From an uncultured Gemmatimonadaceae bacterium (GTDB lineage: Bacteria > Gemmatimonadota > Gemmatimonadetes > Gemmatimonadales > GWC2-71-9), in assembly GCA_964465315.1 (NCBI GenBank), contig CAYXIK010000008.1, positions 21,735 to 85,734 of the forward strand: a stretch of 64,000 nt of DNA, written 5' to 3'. The notes under the pieces are model-generated. The model was not told the origin of the DNA and searched no databases. It saw only the letters and a list, made by a program, of their open reading frames with translations. Below, one piece after another: positions 13,883 to 21,451 of the stretch (position 1 is its first letter; every line of letters begins with the position of its first letter). Position numbers and translations under genes: made by a program.

Positions 13883-14998
13883 ATGTCGGAACCGTTCTTG
13901 AGCTCCGACGATTACGACGAACGTGCACATCAGCTCTACAACGAAGCACGATACGACGACGCCATCGACACCCTGAAAGCCGGCCTGGGGCTGTATCCCC
14001 ACGCCGTCGAGCTGCACGTGGGCATGGGCTATGCGCGCCTCGCGCGCGAGGAGTATCTGTGGGCGCGCCGGGCCTTCGAGGAGGCGGTCGGCCTCGACCC
14101 CGAGCACGAGGATGCGCTCGCCGGGCTCGGTGAGGTTCTTCTCAAGTTCGGTGACCGCGCCGGAGCGGTCGCGTGCTTCGATCGCATCGTGGCCCTCGGG
14201 TTTCGAGATGACCACGACCTCATGCTTCAAGTCGGGCGGGCCCTGTTCCGTGAGGGCGTGTTGGACCAGGCCCGGCGCTTCTTCGAAGTGGCCATCACCG
14301 GGCATCCGGACTCGGCGGAGGCCGCCGCGTGCGTGGGCTACGCCGCCCACCGGCTGGCGGACGAGGGCGGCGCGCTCTACTGGCTCCGGCGCGCGCTCGA
14401 GCTGGACCTCGAGCACGCCGAAGCGCGAATCTACCTCGCCAACCTGCTGTACGACCGCGGCGAGTACGAGGCCGCCCTCTTCCACTTGGAGCGCAGTGAG
14501 CCGAGCGACCATTTCGACGGTCTCGCCATCTGGCGGCTGATCGAGCTCAAAAGGAGCGTCTACCGCCTCGCCGACGACGACCCCGAGCTTGTGCCGTGGC
14601 ACCATCGGCTCGACGAACTCGCCGCCGATGCCGCGCCCGATGACCTGCTCCTCGCCGAGATCGAGGCGATGGGGCCCGACGGCCAGATTCGGGACCCTCG
14701 CCAGCTCGAGCTGTTCGGCACGCTCCTCACCGAGCTGCAGGGGATGAAGGCGCGCTCGGGGGGGGAAGTCCATCGCATCAGCATGCTCAACGGCGCGACC
14801 TACGTCGGCACGTGGGAAGAGATCGTACGGCAGATGAAGGACGATGCGGCGGAATGGGCACGCGGCTCGCTCGAGCAGTACATGGCCGCGGTGGCCAATC
14901 GCGGGCGGAAAGAAACCGGGGTCGCGATCCCGGCGACGGATCCGGAGAGCTTCATCAGAGGGAGCGCCGATGCGGGGCTCCTTCGGATTCTCCACTAG
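13883..14998 (+). CDS. TPR-repeat protein with a small uncharacterised C-terminal domain
   Basis: GGAGG RBS; several TPRs (ALAGLGEVLLKFG, ARIYLANLLYDRGEYEAA). Confidence 0.8.
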   Translation: MSEPFLSSDDYDERAHQLYNEARYDDAIDTLKAGLGLYPHAVELHVGMGYARLAREEYLWARRAFEEAVGLDPEHEDALAGLGEVLLKFGDRAGAVACFDRIVALGFRDDHDLMLQVGRALFREGVLDQARRFFEVAITGHPDSAEAAACVGYAAHRLADEGGALYWLRRALELDLEHAEARIYLANLLYDRGEYEAALFHLERSEPSDHFDGLAIWRLIELKRSVYRLADDDPELVPWHHRLDELAADAAPDDLLLAEIEAMGPDGQIRDPRQLELFGTLLTELQGMKARSGGEVHRISMLNGATYVGTWEEIVRQMKDDAAEWARGSLEQYMAAVANRGRKETGVAIPATDPESFIRGSADAGLLRILH

Positions 14999-15082
14999 CC
15001 GCGACAATCCGCTGAGCAGCCGGTAACAGGCCGGGGAAAGGGGAGGAGTGGCTCTTCTCCGGCCGTTTACGCGTTCCTGGCT

Positions 15083-15472
15083 TTACACGGTCGAATGCTT
15101 GAGCTTCACGGCGATCGAAAGTGGCCCGTCCCCTAGAGCGACGAGCGTAATAGCTCCCGCGAACAGCAACCCTTCCAGCTCGATATTCGCGCCGTGTGGC
15201 AGTCTCACCGCCAGGATGGCCACAGCCATCTCCACGGCCATGCAGATGGCCCACAGGCGCGTGAAGATCCCGAGGATGACGCAGGTGGCGCCGATCGTTT
15301 CGATCGCAATGAGGATCACGGCGAACACTGTGGCGAACGGGAACCCGACCTCGTGCAGGAACGTGGCGGTCGCGGGAATGCCATGGTGAAATTTGGTCAA
15401 GCCGTGCAGTAAGAACACGCCGCCCACTGCGAGGCGCATGAAGAATGCCGCGTAGGGGGTGAGTCGGTTCAT
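15083..15472 (-). CDS. DoxX-family membrane protein
   Basis: RLAVGGVFLLHGLTKF, IETIGATCVILGIFTR; GGAGG RBS. Confidence 0.85.
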   Translation of the reverse strand: MNRLTPYAAFFMRLAVGGVFLLHGLTKFHHGIPATATFLHEVGFPFATVFAVILIAIETIGATCVILGIFTRLWAICMAVEMAVAILAVRLPHGANIELEGLLFAGAITLVALGDGPLSIAVKLKHSTV

Positions 15473-15834
15473 GAACCCTCCGGGTGGATGGCTTGGGTCA
15501 CGGGGCCCCGCCGGCGCGCGCCGGTGCGGACTTCGCGCGCCCCGAAGCGTTTGACGATCACGTCGAGACCCCGCTGTGGTAGGGCACCGCCCAGACCCGC
15601 TACGTCGACGAAGCACAGTCCCGCCTCCGGCAAGCCGTGCAGGGCGACGTGCCCGCCGTGGCACACGAGCGCCGCCGAGACCCCTCTCGGCCCGAGCTTC
15701 ACGACCGGCGGGTTCGCCGGATTCAATCCAGCGGCGTTCGCCGCTGCGAGCAGCACGCCGGCGAGCGCCTGGTCGTCGGTGAGGCGGTTCGCGGGGATGC
15801 CTCCCAGATCAGCGAAGACGTGGTCGAACGTCAA
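15469..15834 (-). CDS. AdoMet decarboxylase (SpeD)-fold protein lacking the E-S autocleavage site
   Basis: TTG start overlaps the upstream stop; HVFADLGG...GPRGVSAALVCHGGHVALHGLPEAGLCFVDV aligns by eye with SpeD [28 protein letters not shown]. Confidence 0.68.
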   Translation of the reverse strand: MTFDHVFADLGGIPANRLTDDQALAGVLLAAANAAGLNPANPPVVKLGPRGVSAALVCHGGHVALHGLPEAGLCFVDVAGLGGALPQRGLDVIVKRFGAREVRTGARRRGPVTQAIHPEGS

Positions 15835-16961
15835 CCGCTGCAGCTTGCCTGATAGGTGAGCAGCGGAGCCACGAACGTTCCCCGGATGACTTCGGCGCCC
15901 AGCGGATCGTCGTACAGATCGGTGCGCTGCGCCGTGAACTGATAGCGGCCGCTGATGATCGCCCCACCGCCCGCCGCCGGGGCGTACTGCGTGATGATCA
16001 ACTGTCCCGCGACCTGACTGCTCGACGTGCCGTGCGAGTAGGAGCGGATGCCCGGTGTGGGAAGCGCGCTGAACCACAACGCCCAGGGCCGCTTCGGCTG
16101 GCAGAAGGCGCTGAGTTGACTGATCGTGGTCGTCGCCTCCGCCGGGCTGATCGAATCGATTTCGTACGTACCCGTAGCGATCACCGAGTCGGGCAAGGTG
16201 ATCACGACCTTCTCGTCGATCGTGGAGCCATTGGCCAGCGTGTCGCGCAGTTGAAACGCCAGCTTCCCGTTCAACCGCTGGTAATTGCGCGCTCTGGCCT
16301 GGCCGCCCTGATGCCGCACCGCGGACCCGAGCGCCGTCATGAAGAAGTGCCCGACCTCGGTCGTGTCGGTCAGTGTGAGCACAACGACGAAGCTCGACTC
16401 GGAAACGGTGGTGGTGCCGTCGGTCAGATGCGCGCGGTAGCGGATCGGACCGCCGGTGGCGTGGGCGGTCACCTCGCCGCTCAGGGTGTCGATCGTGATG
16501 ACACTCGGCGTCGTGGAGCTGTCGAATGTGAGCGTCGTCGGACCCGGGGTCCTCTGTTTGATGGCGCGCGGGATCGTGATCGTATCGCCCGGCATCACGA
16601 AGATCGTGTCGAGCAGCAGGCTCAGGTCGAGGGGACGCGATACGACGACGACGGCCCCACTCTGCGCGCCGGCCACCGTGGCGACGACCACCGCCGTGCC
16701 CCGCCCGATCCCCGCGACCTTCCCCGACGTATCGACGGTGGCGACCGTCGGCGGACTGACGCTCCACGTGATGTGACCTGGAGGATGCCGGCTGCCGTCG
16801 CTGTCGAGGATGTACACGGTTCGGGGTGGGAGCGTGTCTCCCACGAAGGTCGAGTCAAGAACCGGGCCGATGATCAAGAACTGCTGGCCGGTGCCGGAGA
16901 CGTTCACGCAAGTCAGGGAGGTGGATGCGACGAGGAGGAGCGCGAACAAGGATCGTTTCAT
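15831..16961 (-). CDS. Lipoprotein with Ig-like (Big_2-type) domains
   Basis: Lipobox SLTC; ITWSVSPPTVATVDTSGKVAGIGRGTAVVVAT. Confidence 0.75.
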   Translation of the reverse strand: MKRSLFALLLVASTSLTCVNVSGTGQQFLIIGPVLDSTFVGDTLPPRTVYILDSDGSRHPPGHITWSVSPPTVATVDTSGKVAGIGRGTAVVVATVAGAQSGAVVVVSRPLDLSLLLDTIFVMPGDTITIPRAIKQRTPGPTTLTFDSSTTPSVITIDTLSGEVTAHATGGPIRYRAHLTDGTTTVSESSFVVVLTLTDTTEVGHFFMTALGSAVRHQGGQARARNYQRLNGKLAFQLRDTLANGSTIDEKVVITLPDSVIATGTYEIDSISPAEATTTISQLSAFCQPKRPWALWFSALPTPGIRSYSHGTSSSQVAGQLIITQYAPAAGGGAIISGRYQFTAQRTDLYDDPLGAEVIRGTFVAPLLTYQASCSG

Positions 16962-17054
16962 AGTCGCCTAAGGTTGAGAGGGTGCGGTCGCGAGCCGCCG
17001 GAAGCCGTGGGTATCCTATGGAACACCGGGAGCGTCCGATTGCTCCGGCCCGGC

Positions 17055-17513
17055 CTAAAACATCGACATTGCGAGGAAGGAACGAAGGTTGTCGTTGGTG
17101 ACCCGGAGCCGGGCCGAGAGCAGGCGCACCACCGACCAGAGCACCTTGTAGGCGATATCGCGGTTGAAATCGAGCAGCAGCTCGAAATCCGAGCGGGCGA
17201 TCGTGAGGAGCGTGCAGGATGTATTGGCGATGGCGTCGGTGGAGCGCTCGGAGCGATCGAAGATCGCCATCTCGCCGAAGCAGGCGCCCGGCTTCAGGAC
17301 GGCGAGGGCCTCCTCCCCGGACCCCGGAATGGTCCGCGAAATGCGCACTTCGCCGTCGGAAATAATGAACAGCCGGTTTCCTGGCTCGCCTTCCTTGAAG
17401 ACATGCTGTCCGACGGCGAACTTTTGCTCCCGGCAAACCTCGGACACCCGGGCGAGCTCTCCGTCGTCCAGGTCTTGGAAGATCGCCGCCTGCTTCAACA
17501 GATTGAGGTTCAC
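17055..17513 (-). CDS. Stand-alone cyclic-nucleotide-binding domain protein
   Basis: VFKEGEPGNRLFIISDGEV, GACFGEMAIFDRSERSTDA; no HTH. Confidence 0.9.
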   Translation of the reverse strand: MNLNLLKQAAIFQDLDDGELARVSEVCREQKFAVGQHVFKEGEPGNRLFIISDGEVRISRTIPGSGEEALAVLKPGACFGEMAIFDRSERSTDAIANTSCTLLTIARSDFELLLDFNRDIAYKVLWSVVRLLSARLRVTNDNLRSFLAMSMF

Positions 17514-17548
17514 GGCACGAAGCTACGGCGCACCGGAGGGAGGGGCAA

Positions 17549-18061
17549 GTGAAACCGTGGGTGACGCCGGCGGATCTGCTTACCGCCCTTCGCCTTCCGC
17601 TCGCGGTAGCGTTTCCATTCGTGCATCGGCCCGCGTGGCAGCTGGCGCTGGTGGGCGCGGTCGCGGCGTCGGATTTCTTCGACGGCATGCTCGCGCGTCG
17701 CTTCGGCGGCTCGCGCACGGGCGCGGTGCTCGATCCGATCGCCGACAAGTTCTTCATGGCGGTGGCGTTTCTGACGGTCGCTCGCAGCGGATTGCTGTAC
17801 CCGCTCGAGATCGCTGGGGTACTGGCCCGGGACATCGTCGCGGCCCTGGGGTACGTGGGAGCGTGGTTGTGGCGCGGGCCCATGGCGTTGCCCGCGCGCG
17901 CCGGCGGCAAGGCCGTGACCGTCCTCCAGTTGCTCACGCTGGTGGCCTGCATCGTGAACTCGCCGCACGTGCGCCCGCTGGCCTGGGCCACCACGGCGGT
18001 GGGTCTCTACGCCATCTGGGACTATGGCCGCGCCGCAGCTCGGGCGAGCGCGCGACGTTGA
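17549..18061 (+). CDS. CDP-alcohol phosphatidyltransferase family protein
   Basis: DFFDGMLARR...GAVLDPIADK signature. Confidence 0.88.
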   Translation: MKPWVTPADLLTALRLPLAVAFPFVHRPAWQLALVGAVAASDFFDGMLARRFGGSRTGAVLDPIADKFFMAVAFLTVARSGLLYPLEIAGVLARDIVAALGYVGAWLWRGPMALPARAGGKAVTVLQLLTLVACIVNSPHVRPLAWATTAVGLYAIWDYGRAAARASARR

Positions 18062-18081
18062 CACCGGAAGGAGGGCACGAC

Positions 18082-18609
18082 ATGCGTAGGGCATGGCTCG
18101 TCGTGCTCCTGCTCGCGGGCGGGACGCCGCTGCTCGGCGCGCAGGAGTTCCATCCGCCGCCCGTGCAACGGTCCGGCGACCACGGGACGAGGTTCGGCCT
18201 GTTCGGCTTTGGCGTACGCGGCGGCGTGGACGCGTCGGGGCGCAAACAGATGGTGTTCGGCGTCACGCTCGACGCCGGCCACCTGTTCGGCTCGCGTTTC
18301 CGCATCCGGCCATCCGGCGAGATCGGCGTGTTCAATGGCGTCAACAGCTACATCGGCAGCATGGAAGCCCTGTATCGCTTCACGCCCGACGATCAGACGG
18401 CGACGCCGTACGCCGGCGGGGGGTTCAGCATCGTGGGGCACGACGCCTGCGGCGCCGACCCCGATTGTCCGGACCTCTGGGTCAACCTCGTCGTGGGCGT
18501 GGAGCTCCACTATCGCTCGACGTTCAACTGGCTGATCGAGTATCACGCGATGGATCACTTCAACCACAGTCGATTCTACGTGGGGTTAACCACGCGGCGG
18601 GGCAACTGA
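18082..18609 (+). CDS. Small outer-membrane beta-barrel protein
   Basis: AAGGAGG RBS, signal peptide, amphipathic strands, PYAGGG. Confidence 0.65.
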   Translation: MRRAWLVVLLLAGGTPLLGAQEFHPPPVQRSGDHGTRFGLFGFGVRGGVDASGRKQMVFGVTLDAGHLFGSRFRIRPSGEIGVFNGVNSYIGSMEALYRFTPDDQTATPYAGGGFSIVGHDACGADPDCPDLWVNLVVGVELHYRSTFNWLIEYHAMDHFNHSRFYVGLTTRRGN

Positions 18610-18610
18610 G

Positions 18611-19021
18611 ATGGCGAGCCGGATCGCCGAGGTCACGATGCGCTGGCGCGAGCGCCTCGTGTTCGAAGCTGGTGCCCCGGGCCGACCGCTCGTGCTCGTG
18701 GACGGAGACGGCACGGTCGCGACGTCCCCCGTCGAGATGCTGCTGGTGGCCGCGGCGACCTGCACGGCGTCGGACGTCGTGCTGATCCTCGAGAAGCAGC
18801 GGGTCGCCTTGCGTTCGCTCGAGGCAAAGGTGCAGGGCACTCGTCGTGAAGAGCAGCCTCGGCGCTACACCGCTCTCCACTTCGTCTTCACCATTGCGGG
18901 AGACGGGGCCGACGAGGTGAAGGCACGCCGCGCGATCGACCTGTCGCTCGAGAAGTACTGCTCCGTGGTGGCGTCGCTCGCCCCCGACATCCGTATCAGC
19001 TACGACGTCCAGCTTCGCTAA
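18611..19021 (+). CDS. OsmC/YhfA-family protein
   Basis: SPVEMLLVAAATCTASDV, RRAIDLSLEKYCSV. Confidence 0.9.
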   Translation: MASRIAEVTMRWRERLVFEAGAPGRPLVLVDGDGTVATSPVEMLLVAAATCTASDVVLILEKQRVALRSLEAKVQGTRREEQPRRYTALHFVFTIAGDGADEVKARRAIDLSLEKYCSVVASLAPDIRISYDVQLR

Positions 19022-20046: not shown

Positions 20047-20364
20047 ATGGGCGACACGTCAGACGAAGTGTACGGTCCGGAGCGCGCAAAGCGTCTGCTG
20101 GCGCTGCTGCGCGGTCTGGCGGAGCGGATTCAGTCGCTGGACGGAAGCGGGCAACTGCTCGAGCGGGTGCCGGAGCTGCAAAAGCTGCTCGGGAACGCGC
20201 GCAGCGAGCTGTTCCACTATGAAGTGCGACTCACGTACGATACTCCGGAAATCGCGGAGAGCCGGCGCCTCGTCGAGGAGGCGGAGCAGCGGGCGTTGGA
20301 CGCGACGGCCGGTTTCGAGGACGAGGAGGACGACGAACCGTGGCGGAGGGCTCGGGACGAATGA
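20047..20364 (+). CDS. Acidic helical hypothetical protein
   Basis: GGAAGG RBS; ATGA overlap with the dsbA-like gene. Confidence 0.65.
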   Translation: MGDTSDEVYGPERAKRLLALLRGLAERIQSLDGSGQLLERVPELQKLLGNARSELFHYEVRLTYDTPEIAESRRLVEEAEQRALDATAGFEDEEDDEPWRRARDE

Positions 20365-21014
20365 ACCGGTTCTATCTGCTGCTCGTGGCGGTGGCGCTCA
20401 TCGGTGGCGGCATGCTCTGGTACGGATCCCGGCAAGAGGCTGCACCGGCTCCGAACGCGCCGGTTCCGGTCGCGGCCGCGGACGGGTTCCAGGGCTTCAC
20501 CCTGGGCTCGGACTCCGCGAAGGTGGAGGTGACGGAGTACTCCGACTTCGAGTGCCCGTTCTGCGCGTCGTTCGCCACGGTCCAGATGCCGGTGATCCGC
20601 CAGCAGCTGATTGCCACCGGCAAGGTGCGCTGGCGGTATCGCGACTTCCCGTTGCCCACCCACCAGTACTCTCGGTACGCCGCGCTCGCGGCCCAGTGCG
20701 CGGGTGAGCAAGGGAAGTTCTGGGAGATGCACGACCAGCTCTTCGCCAATCACCAGTGGGCCCAAACCGGGAAGAACCCCTCGGCGCTGTTCCGTGATTT
20801 CGCGAAGACCATCGGCCTAGAGGTCGACAAGTACGACGCCTGCATGGACGGCCAGCGATACGCCGGGCGAATTCAGGCGAGCGTGGAGGAGGGGGAGAAA
20901 CAGGGCGTGCGGGGCACGCCCAGCTTTTTCGTGAGCGGCCACCCCTTTCGGGGACGCGCCACCTCCGACGACTTCAAGGCCCTGGTCGACAGTCTGACAA
21001 CAAAGCACAAGTGA
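20361..21014 (+). CDS. DsbA-family thiol-disulfide oxidoreductase
   Basis: N-terminal TM; EYSDFECPFC; RDFPL; cis-Pro GTPSF. Confidence 0.9.
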   Translation: MNRFYLLLVAVALIGGGMLWYGSRQEAAPAPNAPVPVAAADGFQGFTLGSDSAKVEVTEYSDFECPFCASFATVQMPVIRQQLIATGKVRWRYRDFPLPTHQYSRYAALAAQCAGEQGKFWEMHDQLFANHQWAQTGKNPSALFRDFAKTIGLEVDKYDACMDGQRYAGRIQASVEEGEKQGVRGTPSFFVSGHPFRGRATSDDFKALVDSLTTKHK

Positions 21015-21451
21015 TCCGGCGCCAGGCGATCGCGCTCCTCGCGCTCGTGGGGCTTTTGGTCGCCACCTACCTCTGGCTCTACAAGATCGGCGTGCTCGAC
21101 GAGCTCCAGTGCGGCACCGGGAGCTGCGAGTACGTCCAGACCAGCCCGTACGCGGAGATATTCGGCGTCCCCGTCGCGTTCATCGGCGTCGTCGGGTACG
21201 TGGCCCTCTTCCTGGTCGGCCTGGCGGGCGTGCAACCGCGGTTCGCTGCTGACCGGCGCGTAACCGTCCTGATCGCGGTACTCGCCACGATTGGGTTCGC
21301 CTTCACGCTGTATCTCACGGCGATCGAGCTGTTCGTGCTCCACGCGATCTGCCGCTGGTGCATGGGGTCTGCGGTCATCATGACGGCCATCTGGAGTCTC
21401 GCGCTGGCCGGACTGGTCCGCCCGCCGTCGCCCGCCGCGCCCACCCGCTAG
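21011..21451 (+). CDS. Vitamin K epoxide reductase (VKOR) family protein
   Basis: C-x4-C loop (CGTGSC), SPYAEIFGVPVA, active-site CRWC. Confidence 0.92.
   Translation: MIRRQAIALLALVGLLVATYLWLYKIGVLDELQCGTGSCEYVQTSPYAEIFGVPVAFIGVVGYVALFLVGLAGVQPRFAADRRVTVLIAVLATIGFAFTLYLTAIELFVLHAICRWCMGSAVIMTAIWSLALAGLVRPPSPAAPTR

Follow-up and report, generated by a model that had tools for sequence, protein, structure and literature searches.

What becomes of a pyruvoyl-dependent enzyme fold once the residue that forms the pyruvoyl group has been lost? This question is raised by a small gene in a stretch of 64,000 nucleotides from an uncultured Gemmatimonadaceae bacterium (contig CAYXIK010000008.1), which was analysed as a whole and is called the window in the following. 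The gene encodes a protein resembling SpeD, the class 1b S-adenosylmethionine decarboxylase (AdoMetDC), and had been described in the initial annotation, made from the DNA alone, as coding for a probable pseudoenzyme. Here we report that this SpeD-like protein has kept the fold and lost the residues for pyruvoyl chemistry together with its whole clade, and we are confident that it represents a conserved, non-pyruvoyl branch of the SpeD fold. We then ask which function it might have acquired instead.

A complete gene for a protein with the SpeD fold

The gene and the codons that matter for its interpretation are the following:

15469-15834, minus strand: SpeD/AdoMetDC-fold protein without the serine, 121 amino acids, TTG start and TGA stop, matched by PF02675 over its full length

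15649-15663, minus strand: codons of Cys58-His59-Gly60-Gly61-His62 at the hairpin tip (x-x-Glu-Ser-His in the enzyme), with Gly61 aligned to the Ser63 site

15613-15615, minus strand: codon of Cys74, invariant in the clade; Ala in aligned canonical sequences, Leu in the sister clade

15592-15594, minus strand: codon of Leu81 at the Cys83 site, from the alignment of TCG with GLG

The open reading frame (ORF) is unbroken, as had been noted before, and translates into 121 amino acids plus stop, (L/M)TFDHVFADLGG...VSAALVCHGGHVALHGLPEAGLCFVDVAGLGG...HPEGS*. Its content of guanine and cytosine (GC) at the third and second codon positions (GC3 0.83, GC2 0.52) is typical of genes in a window with 68% GC and therefore fits a real gene. 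The TTG start is supported by homologues whose own start codon (ATG, GTG or TTG) lies at the same position. This start codon (15834-15832) shares bases with the TGA stop (15833-15831) of a 376-amino-acid ORF upstream (TTGA), and the TGA stop of the gene (15471-15469) shares bases with the ATG (15472-15470) of a downstream DoxX ORF (ATGA); both overlaps had already been described and were found again here. Scanning positions 14900-18200 for promoters and terminators gave nothing informative.

The Pfam profile PF02675 (AdoMet_dc; cut-off 25 bits) matches the protein with 62.5 bits (E 5.6e-17) over positions 1-107 of 107, and the NCBI equivalog model of AdoMetDC, TIGR03330, scores it with 55.3 bits, under its cut-off of 75.65. 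The closest solved relative by sequence is SpeD of Aquifex aeolicus (2iii, E 1e-7). An AlphaFold2 model computed from an alignment of 33 sequences reached a mean predicted local distance difference test score (pLDDT) of 94.9 and a predicted template modelling score (pTM) of 0.86. In a Foldseek search against the PDB, the top match was AdoMetDC of Thermotoga maritima (1tmi_A; template modelling score, TM, 0.85; root-mean-square deviation 1.1 Å), an entry whose PDB title names the non-processing mutant S63A, followed by 2iii and 1vr7. After a large gap came human spermine synthase (3c6k, TMq 0.54), plant and human AdoMetDC and the Trypanosoma brucei prozyme (5tvm_B), with PII-like proteins among the weak matches (E above 0.05). 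With class 1b AdoMetDC as the first structural match and a profile match over the full length, the AdoMetDC fold given in the initial annotation stands, and the protein is a member of the class 1b SpeD fold.

Loss of the catalytic residues throughout the clade

Residue n of the window protein corresponds to residue n+2 of the T. maritima enzyme, as determined from alignments to 2iii, 1tlu and 1tmi. In these alignments the segment LVCHGGHVALHGLPE falls on the Glu-Ser segment of the three enzymes and GLG on their TCG, so that Glu62-Ser63 of T. maritima correspond to Gly60-Gly61 and the catalytic Cys83 to Leu81. His64, His68 and Glu72 are retained as His62, His66 and Glu70, and the Asp of the VD pair is Asp77. 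His66 is the equivalent of His68, which is needed for processing in T. maritima; residue roles that go beyond the alignments are given here as reportedly known from earlier work (Toms et al. 2004; Bale and Ealick 2010).

The same pattern was found in the 120 closest protein clusters (68-91% identical to the window protein), whose representatives share the motif C-[HNDRYQ]-[GRD]-G followed by His, rarely by Leu. Cys58, Gly61, Cys74, Asp77 and Arg96 are each present in 120/120, Gly60 in 117/120, His62 and His66 in 115/120 each and His59 in 105/120. The position of Cys83 is occupied by Leu, Val, Met, Ile or Pro and in none of the 120 by Cys. Glu70, the equivalent of T. maritima Glu72, which is presumably a ligand of the AdoMet ribose, is kept in just 61/120, and the Ser55 position is likewise unconserved. 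The exchange of the Glu-Ser pair for Gly-Gly had been recognised before; it understated the loss, since the catalytic cysteine is gone as well, and with serine and cysteine absent clade-wide the protein can be called dead for AdoMetDC chemistry on good grounds. Because the pyruvoyl-forming serine, the preceding glutamate and the catalytic cysteine are all lost, the window protein, judged from its residues, cannot be a pyruvoyl-dependent decarboxylase. Lacking serine and cysteine and scoring under the equivalog cut-off, it should not be filed as an AdoMetDC.

All named members of the 120 clusters are Gemmatimonadetes or Gemmatimonadales metagenome-assembled genomes. A scan of one genome per species, with patterns that favour the window's clade and without specific sampling of cultured Gemmatimonadota, detected the gene in 46 Gemmatimonadota genomes, 41 of which (L005-L045, Gemmatimonadales) carry the C-H-G-G-H motif. 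A degenerate single copy is thus ruled out, since the motif is kept by the 120 closest clusters and by these 41 species, and none of the 120 homologues has retained Glu-Ser in place of the glycine at the serine site. Selection was estimated from the pairwise Nei-Gojobori ratio of nonsynonymous to synonymous substitution rates (dN/dS) over 44 loci, which should be read as relative values only, as dS is compressed at high GC. The median is 0.20 for the SpeD-like gene, similar to neighbouring housekeeping genes. By the same measure we obtained 0.06 for a gene encoding a cyclic nucleotide monophosphate (cNMP)-binding protein, 0.13 for a tetratricopeptide repeat (TPR) gene, 0.15 for argJ, 0.22 for the gene of a cytidine diphosphate (CDP)-alcohol transferase, 0.24 for osmC, 0.28 for doxX and 0.57 for a lipoprotein gene. 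The SpeD-like gene is therefore a functional protein-coding gene under purifying selection. Soil and root metatranscriptome contigs of relatives span the junction between the SpeD-like and DoxX genes, and the cNMP gene more deeply, which is weak evidence for transcription of the junction, with carry-over of DNA as a possible source. As to the window itself, 100% of its sampled words are present in four rock-metagenome runs.

A serine-less family with a cysteine-bearing sister clade

An exhaustive search of 1.84 billion representatives returned 250 relatives at E <= 0.001. Among the best 150 of these 250, which were aligned, roughly the first 40 and scattered later ones lack the serine; canonical sequences with E-S-H ... 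T-C-G start at about E 1e-11 in the ranking. In a neighbour-joining tree, computed without support values, all serine-less sequences form one group apart from the E-S-H enzymes, and the latter do not form a single clade. The serine-less group consists of two halves, one being the window's clade with loose relatives that mostly have Gly at the serine site, the other a large sister clade:

L004 and L046-L101 (e.g. L048:4697-5026 and L051:3939-4289), proteins P0143 and P0329-P0444: members of the sister clade

A profile search with the sister clade yielded more than 646 clusters, and the named ones all belong to Gemmatimonadaceae or Gemmatimonadota. Judged by the named members, the serine-less family would be a Gemmatimonadota-specific branch. 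In the best 116 of the more than 646 clusters, the serine position holds Cys in 115 and Ser in one (motif D-G-C-H); His66, Asp77, Arg96, Asp20, His5 and Asp9 are invariant and His62 occurs in 115. Leu, Thr or Pro occupies the Cys83 position, the Glu72 position is variable, and Leu is found at both positions at which the window clade has its cysteines 58 and 74. Some deep relatives have motifs without Cys58, namely GVDGH, GPGGH, TAEAH and AHRGH.

That a pyruvoyl group arises from cysteine (cysteinolysis) is established for PrdA and GrdE of the proline and glycine reductases, and the decarboxylase-type pyruvoyl enzymes covered in the same article use serine (PMC11229817). Since cysteinolysis is known for PrdA and GrdE, the sister clade, with Cys at the serine site, may by analogy still be self-processing. 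The window clade has Gly at the cleavage site and its Cys58 three residues upstream, from which we conclude that it is predicted to be unable to self-process at the position equivalent to Ser63.

Comparison with AdoMetDC and with inactive relatives of the fold

The window protein shares with class 1b SpeD (1tlu/1tmi, 2iii) the fold, the length, the full-length profile match and the equivalents of His64, His68 and the VD aspartate. It differs in lacking Glu62-Ser63, Cys83, conservation of Ser55 and Glu72, a neighbouring speE and an equivalog-level score; because these class 1b residues are missing, it would have neither a pyruvoyl cofactor nor AdoMetDC activity. The N-terminal domain of human spermine synthase (3c6k) likewise has an AdoMetDC-like fold without pyruvoyl chemistry, but it belongs to a eukaryotic aminopropyltransferase and matches the window protein much more weakly than class 1b SpeD does. 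This domain is reportedly used for dimerisation (Wu et al. 2008). Another AdoMetDC paralogue that is dead and keeps its fold is the trypanosomatid prozyme (5tvm chain B; PMC5201418); this eukaryotic protein is of class 2, is built as a double domain and has a known active partner, whereas the window protein is half its size, belongs to class 1b and is found in a non-polyamine context. In the SpeD-SpeDC proteins of Victivallis vadensis and Desulfobacter latus, the C-terminal domain is a bacterial SpeD module that has lost its active-site residues and does not self-cleave (Li et al. 2023, PMC10407285); unlike the stand-alone window family with its own motif, it is fused to an active SpeD and takes part in polyamine metabolism. 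Thus, the known non-catalytic uses of the fold in prozyme, SpeD-SpeDC and spermine synthase are all within polyamine metabolism. Recruitment beyond AdoMet decarboxylation has been described for the bacterial, archaeal and phage ornithine and arginine decarboxylases that are derived from SpeD and depend on pyruvoyl (PMC10407285, PMC9992855), all of which retain the self-processing serine and the pyruvoyl group, in contrast to the window protein with its Gly61. The SpeD literature that we searched makes no mention of a serine-less family that stands alone, spans a phylum and is encoded among lipid, cNMP and membrane genes.

Neither the 64-kb window nor 103 related loci contained a second AdoMet_dc ORF or an ORF resembling spermidine synthase, and no polyamine genes were detected at these 103 loci. 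The closest canonical sequence, P0156, was used for a further search, in which the named relatives were sphingomonads and one unclassified bacterium, a result that is uninformative on Gemmatimonadota, and looking up the clusters of 10 canonical or fusion representatives yielded no names of taxa. Literature on polyamines or speD in Gemmatimonadetes gave nothing beyond a reference to Hosoya et al. 2006. The initial annotation had proposed a prozyme-like activator of AdoMetDC or a binder of S-adenosylmethionine (SAM) or polyamines. The first proposal found no support, as no polyamine genes are nearby and the partners are a transferase, a cNMP-binding protein and membrane proteins; neither did the second, given that only about half of the clade has the presumed ribose ligand. 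A prozyme-like role is unlikely. On an unrelated contig of 684 kb (L104:4049-8891), we noticed four AdoMet_dc-domain genes around a spermine-synthase-like gene beside an ABC exporter; two of the AdoMet_dc genes have weak or faint SET-domain matches, and one of these encodes the 437-amino-acid P0142 with the motif G-S-H. The arrangement resembles a polyamine or natural-product cluster of an unusual kind.

Genomic context of the serine-less genes

We compared the gene neighbourhood of the 103 loci by tblastn with the window proteins and by our own gene calls and clustering. The features concerned are:

15083-15472, minus strand: DoxX-family membrane protein, 129 amino acids (PF07681, 59.5 bits), its ATG overlapping the stop of the SpeD-like gene

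15831-16961, minus strand: Ig-like secreted or lipoprotein-like protein, 376 amino acids (Big_2, 22.4 bits; cut-off 22.8)

17055-17513, minus strand: stand-alone cNMP-binding domain protein, 152 amino acids (PF00027, 80 bits), first gene of the cluster

17549-18061, plus strand: PgsA-like CDP-alcohol phosphatidyltransferase, 170 amino acids (PF01066, 65 bits; TIGR00560, 52.8 bits, below its cut-off)

L102:8410-10068, also for instance in L090 and L061: protein of about 510-550 amino acids downstream of the SpeD-like gene, usually with an ATGA overlap

The genes for the cNMP-binding protein, the lipoprotein, the SpeD-like protein and DoxX form a same-strand cluster in this order, divergent from the PgsA-like gene. 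Loci of the window clade have the order divergent PgsA-like transferase, cNMP-binding protein, NTP_transferase (10 loci), lipoprotein, SpeD-like protein and DoxX. In the sister clades, the same divergent transferase is followed by an optional cNMP gene, an optional NTP_transferase gene, the SpeD-like gene and the gene for the protein of about 510-550 amino acids (52 loci). The deepest conserved neighbour is the CDP-alcohol transferase gene, which in nearly all loci with a long enough flank is found upstream in divergent orientation; the protein is just 34-43% identical between clades, yet its gene is still adjacent. In all clades, most loci have the cNMP-binding gene upstream of the SpeD-like gene; its product has no output domain, with identities of 88-99% inside the order and of 63-74% in the sister clades. 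In the root metatranscriptome run X27, no other gene of the stretch is covered as deeply. In 14 loci (e.g. L016, L018, L041, L043 and L068), a GalU-like NTP_transferase gene separates the SpeD-like gene from the transferase or cNMP gene, and in L102:7150-8004 it overlaps the start of the SpeD-like gene. The pairing of a nucleotidyltransferase with a CDP-alcohol transferase hints that a CDP-activated head group is made.

In most loci, the SpeD-like gene is followed downstream by a membrane-protein gene, mostly with an ATGA overlap between the start of this gene and the stop of the SpeD-like gene. The membrane-protein gene is doxX in each of the 43 loci of the window clade, the close metagenome loci L001 and L002 included. 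In the larger protein of the sister clades, a multi-pass membrane region at the N-terminus is combined with a soluble domain of about 300 amino acids, in which many Asp, Trp, His and Glu residues are invariant; searches against Pfam, NCBIfam and the PDB sequences gave no match. DoxX could be ruled out as a remnant of this protein, since the hhalign probability was 2.8%. In one metagenomic protein, P0031 (212 amino acids), the SpeD-like sequence is fused in frame to DoxX without the first approximately 35 residues of the latter. We set this single instance aside as evidence for an interaction: it involves one junction deletion and probably reflects a variant or an artefact of assembly.

The upstream neighbour behaves differently. 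The Ig-like protein is 33-90% identical among loci and its gene is absent in L012, L017, L040 and L044. The initial annotation had described an Ig-like lipoprotein as coupled to the SpeD-like gene; the TTGA overlap is real, but the coupling is not conserved and the Big_2 match stays just below its threshold. Being variable, absent in four loci and evolving at the highest dN/dS of the genes compared, the lipoprotein was ruled out as a functional partner. The gene behaves like one for a variable surface protein that is carried inside a conserved operon.

Beyond the cluster, the block of OsmC, CDP-alcohol transferase, cNMP-binding protein, SpeD-like protein, TPR protein and ArgJ is syntenic across the order. 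Near the operon we also observed thiol-redox genes, namely osmC (18611-19021), a gene for a DsbA-like protein with CPFC (20340-21014) and a VKOR-like ORF (about 21011-21451); these window ORFs were matched by position to families of the syntenic loci L001 and L002. A DsbH-like thioredoxin is encoded beyond argJ in the same syntenic block. We also considered anti-phage defence with a Pycsar-like cNMP effector. This idea was rejected, because the similarity of the cNMP-binding protein is only generic and the locus is core and syntenic and does not form an island.

Possible functions of the SpeD-like protein

The explanation that accounts best for these observations, and which we favour tentatively, is that the SpeD-like protein, without a pyruvoyl group, acts as an adapter or binds a ligand within an envelope, lipid or redox module. 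As for the mechanism, we infer, with some reservation, a possible function as adapter or regulator. The protein would retain the dimeric half-sandwich together with a remodelled pocket containing His62, His66, Asp77 and the clade-specific Cys58, His59 and Cys74. It would serve as a non-catalytic ligand-binding or adapter subunit of the membrane protein with the overlapping start codon, which would be DoxX here and the unrelated protein of about 510 amino acids in most sister-clade loci, and the signal might enter through the cNMP-binding protein. GlnK-AmtB and SbtB-SbtA offer an analogy of logic alone: there too a small alpha/beta protein is encoded beside a membrane protein and a nucleotide-sensing element is present, but neither system is homologous to the window protein. 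Several points speak against this explanation. His62, His66 and Asp77 are strictly kept and the sister clade has a cysteine at the serine site; such residues are more suggestive of an active site than of a scaffold. In addition, part of the conserved context may be inherited gene order and not functional coupling, because the whole block is syntenic across the order. Finally, the membrane partner is not universal, since some deep relatives, namely L003 and the contig of P0137, have no same-strand downstream gene.

Two other explanations start from the loss of the catalytic residues as such. The gene could be a decaying relic, a pseudogene in the making without function. While the catalytic residues are indeed gone, the ORF is intact in 41 close species genomes and at least 120 protein clusters, dN/dS is low, the clade-specific motifs are invariant, the start/stop overlap with the downstream gene is conserved and the structure model is confident. 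These conservation data already refute a relic, and we regard it as practically untenable. Alternatively, the protein could be a dead paralogue that forms heterodimers with a canonical class 1b SpeD encoded elsewhere and activates or tunes it, as the prozyme does. Its intact dimer-forming fold would allow this, the trypanosomatid prozyme is a real precedent (PMC5201418), and the SpeD-SpeDC fusion of Victivallis vadensis places a degraded SpeD domain beside an active one (PMC10407285). But canonical speD or speE is absent from the window and from about 1 Mb of related loci, where the gene is never found beside polyamine genes and always beside lipid, cNMP or membrane genes, and the closest canonical SpeD has its named relatives in sphingomonads, none in Gemmatimonadota. 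Moreover, the glutamate that we assume to bind the AdoMet ribose is unconserved, and the lineage is old and diversified (Cys, Gly or Ala at the serine site), with no sign of a co-evolving partner. We therefore consider such a regulator very unlikely.

The retained and the newly acquired residues could also mean that the protein is chemically active. Cys58, Cys74, His59, His62 and His66 might form a thiol-redox or metal-binding site that exchanges electrons or metal with the co-translated membrane oxidoreductase of the DoxX type. The two cysteines are invariant and more conserved than the histidines, the C-H-G-G-H motif and DoxX occur together in 43/43 loci of the window clade, DoxX resembles redox maturation proteins of the HvfX/MauE type, and the syntenic block is rich in OsmC, VKOR, DsbA-like and DsbH-like proteins. 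Against this, both cysteines probably face the helix side or the core at a distance of about 16 Å, as derived from strand pairing alone. Their equivalents in aligned canonical sequences are hydrophobic (Leu/Ile/Val) and Ala, P0128/L003 has the C-H-G-G-H motif without DoxX, and the sister clade has Leu at both positions. We regard a site of this kind as doubtful, and the same is true for an enzyme with a new chemistry. Such an enzyme could either undergo cysteinolysis at Cys58, as PrdA and GrdE do, with the pyruvoyl group shifted by three residues, or use His62, His66 and Asp77 for cofactor-independent catalysis on a substrate of the neighbouring CDP-alcohol transferase or NTP-transferase, either a head group or a compound linked to a nucleotide. 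The retention of His62, His66, Asp77 and Arg96 across all serine-less clades argues for an enzyme, as do the nucleophile that the sister clade keeps at the Ser63 position (Cys or, once, Ser in the best 116 clusters) and the biosynthetic enzymes encoded by the conserved neighbours; a pyruvoyl group derived from cysteine is established in the proline and glycine reductases (PMC11229817), and the invariant Cys58 would lie within one turn of position 61 in the model. On the other hand, position 61 is Gly in every member of the window clade, Cys58 is absent from several deep relatives and its site is a buried hydrophobic position in aligned canonical sequences, and the equivalent of Cys83 is lost in every serine-less clade. 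A further argument against new chemistry is that we know of no AdoMetDC-fold protein that works without a serine-derived pyruvoyl group. A related and rather unlikely possibility is a new functional class of the AdoMetDC fold, in which the cysteine of the sister clade makes a pyruvoyl group or acts as catalytic thiol on a substrate tied to the CDP-alcohol transferase, and in which the window clade would represent either a register shift to Cys58 or a dead regulatory derivative.

Implications

Members of both serine-less clades are labelled 'S-adenosylmethionine decarboxylase' or 'S-adenosylmethionine/arginine decarboxylase-like enzyme' in the public NCBI and JGI records, and all named sister-clade clusters carry the first of these labels. 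Examples are P0023, P0052, P0058, P0096, P0369, P0373 and P0375, which lack the serine and the cysteine and score below the TIGR03330 cut-off. The serine-less family is thus probably subject to systematic over-annotation. Hundreds of clusters from abundant soil Gemmatimonadota are affected, and spermidine synthesis inferred from them is probably wrong.

The family also illustrates the fate of a pyruvoyl-enzyme fold after the loss of its serine: a cysteine branch and a glycine branch occupy the same genomic position and both are under selection, which offers a tractable system for following a self-processing enzyme on its way to a pseudoenzyme or to new chemistry. If it takes place, cysteinolysis in the sister clade would be the first case outside the PrdA and GrdE reductases. 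For the Gemmatimonadota, an uncharacterised module of the envelope or of signalling is suggested by the constant pairing of the SpeD-like protein with a PgsA-like transferase, a very strongly conserved stand-alone cNMP-binding protein and membrane proteins.

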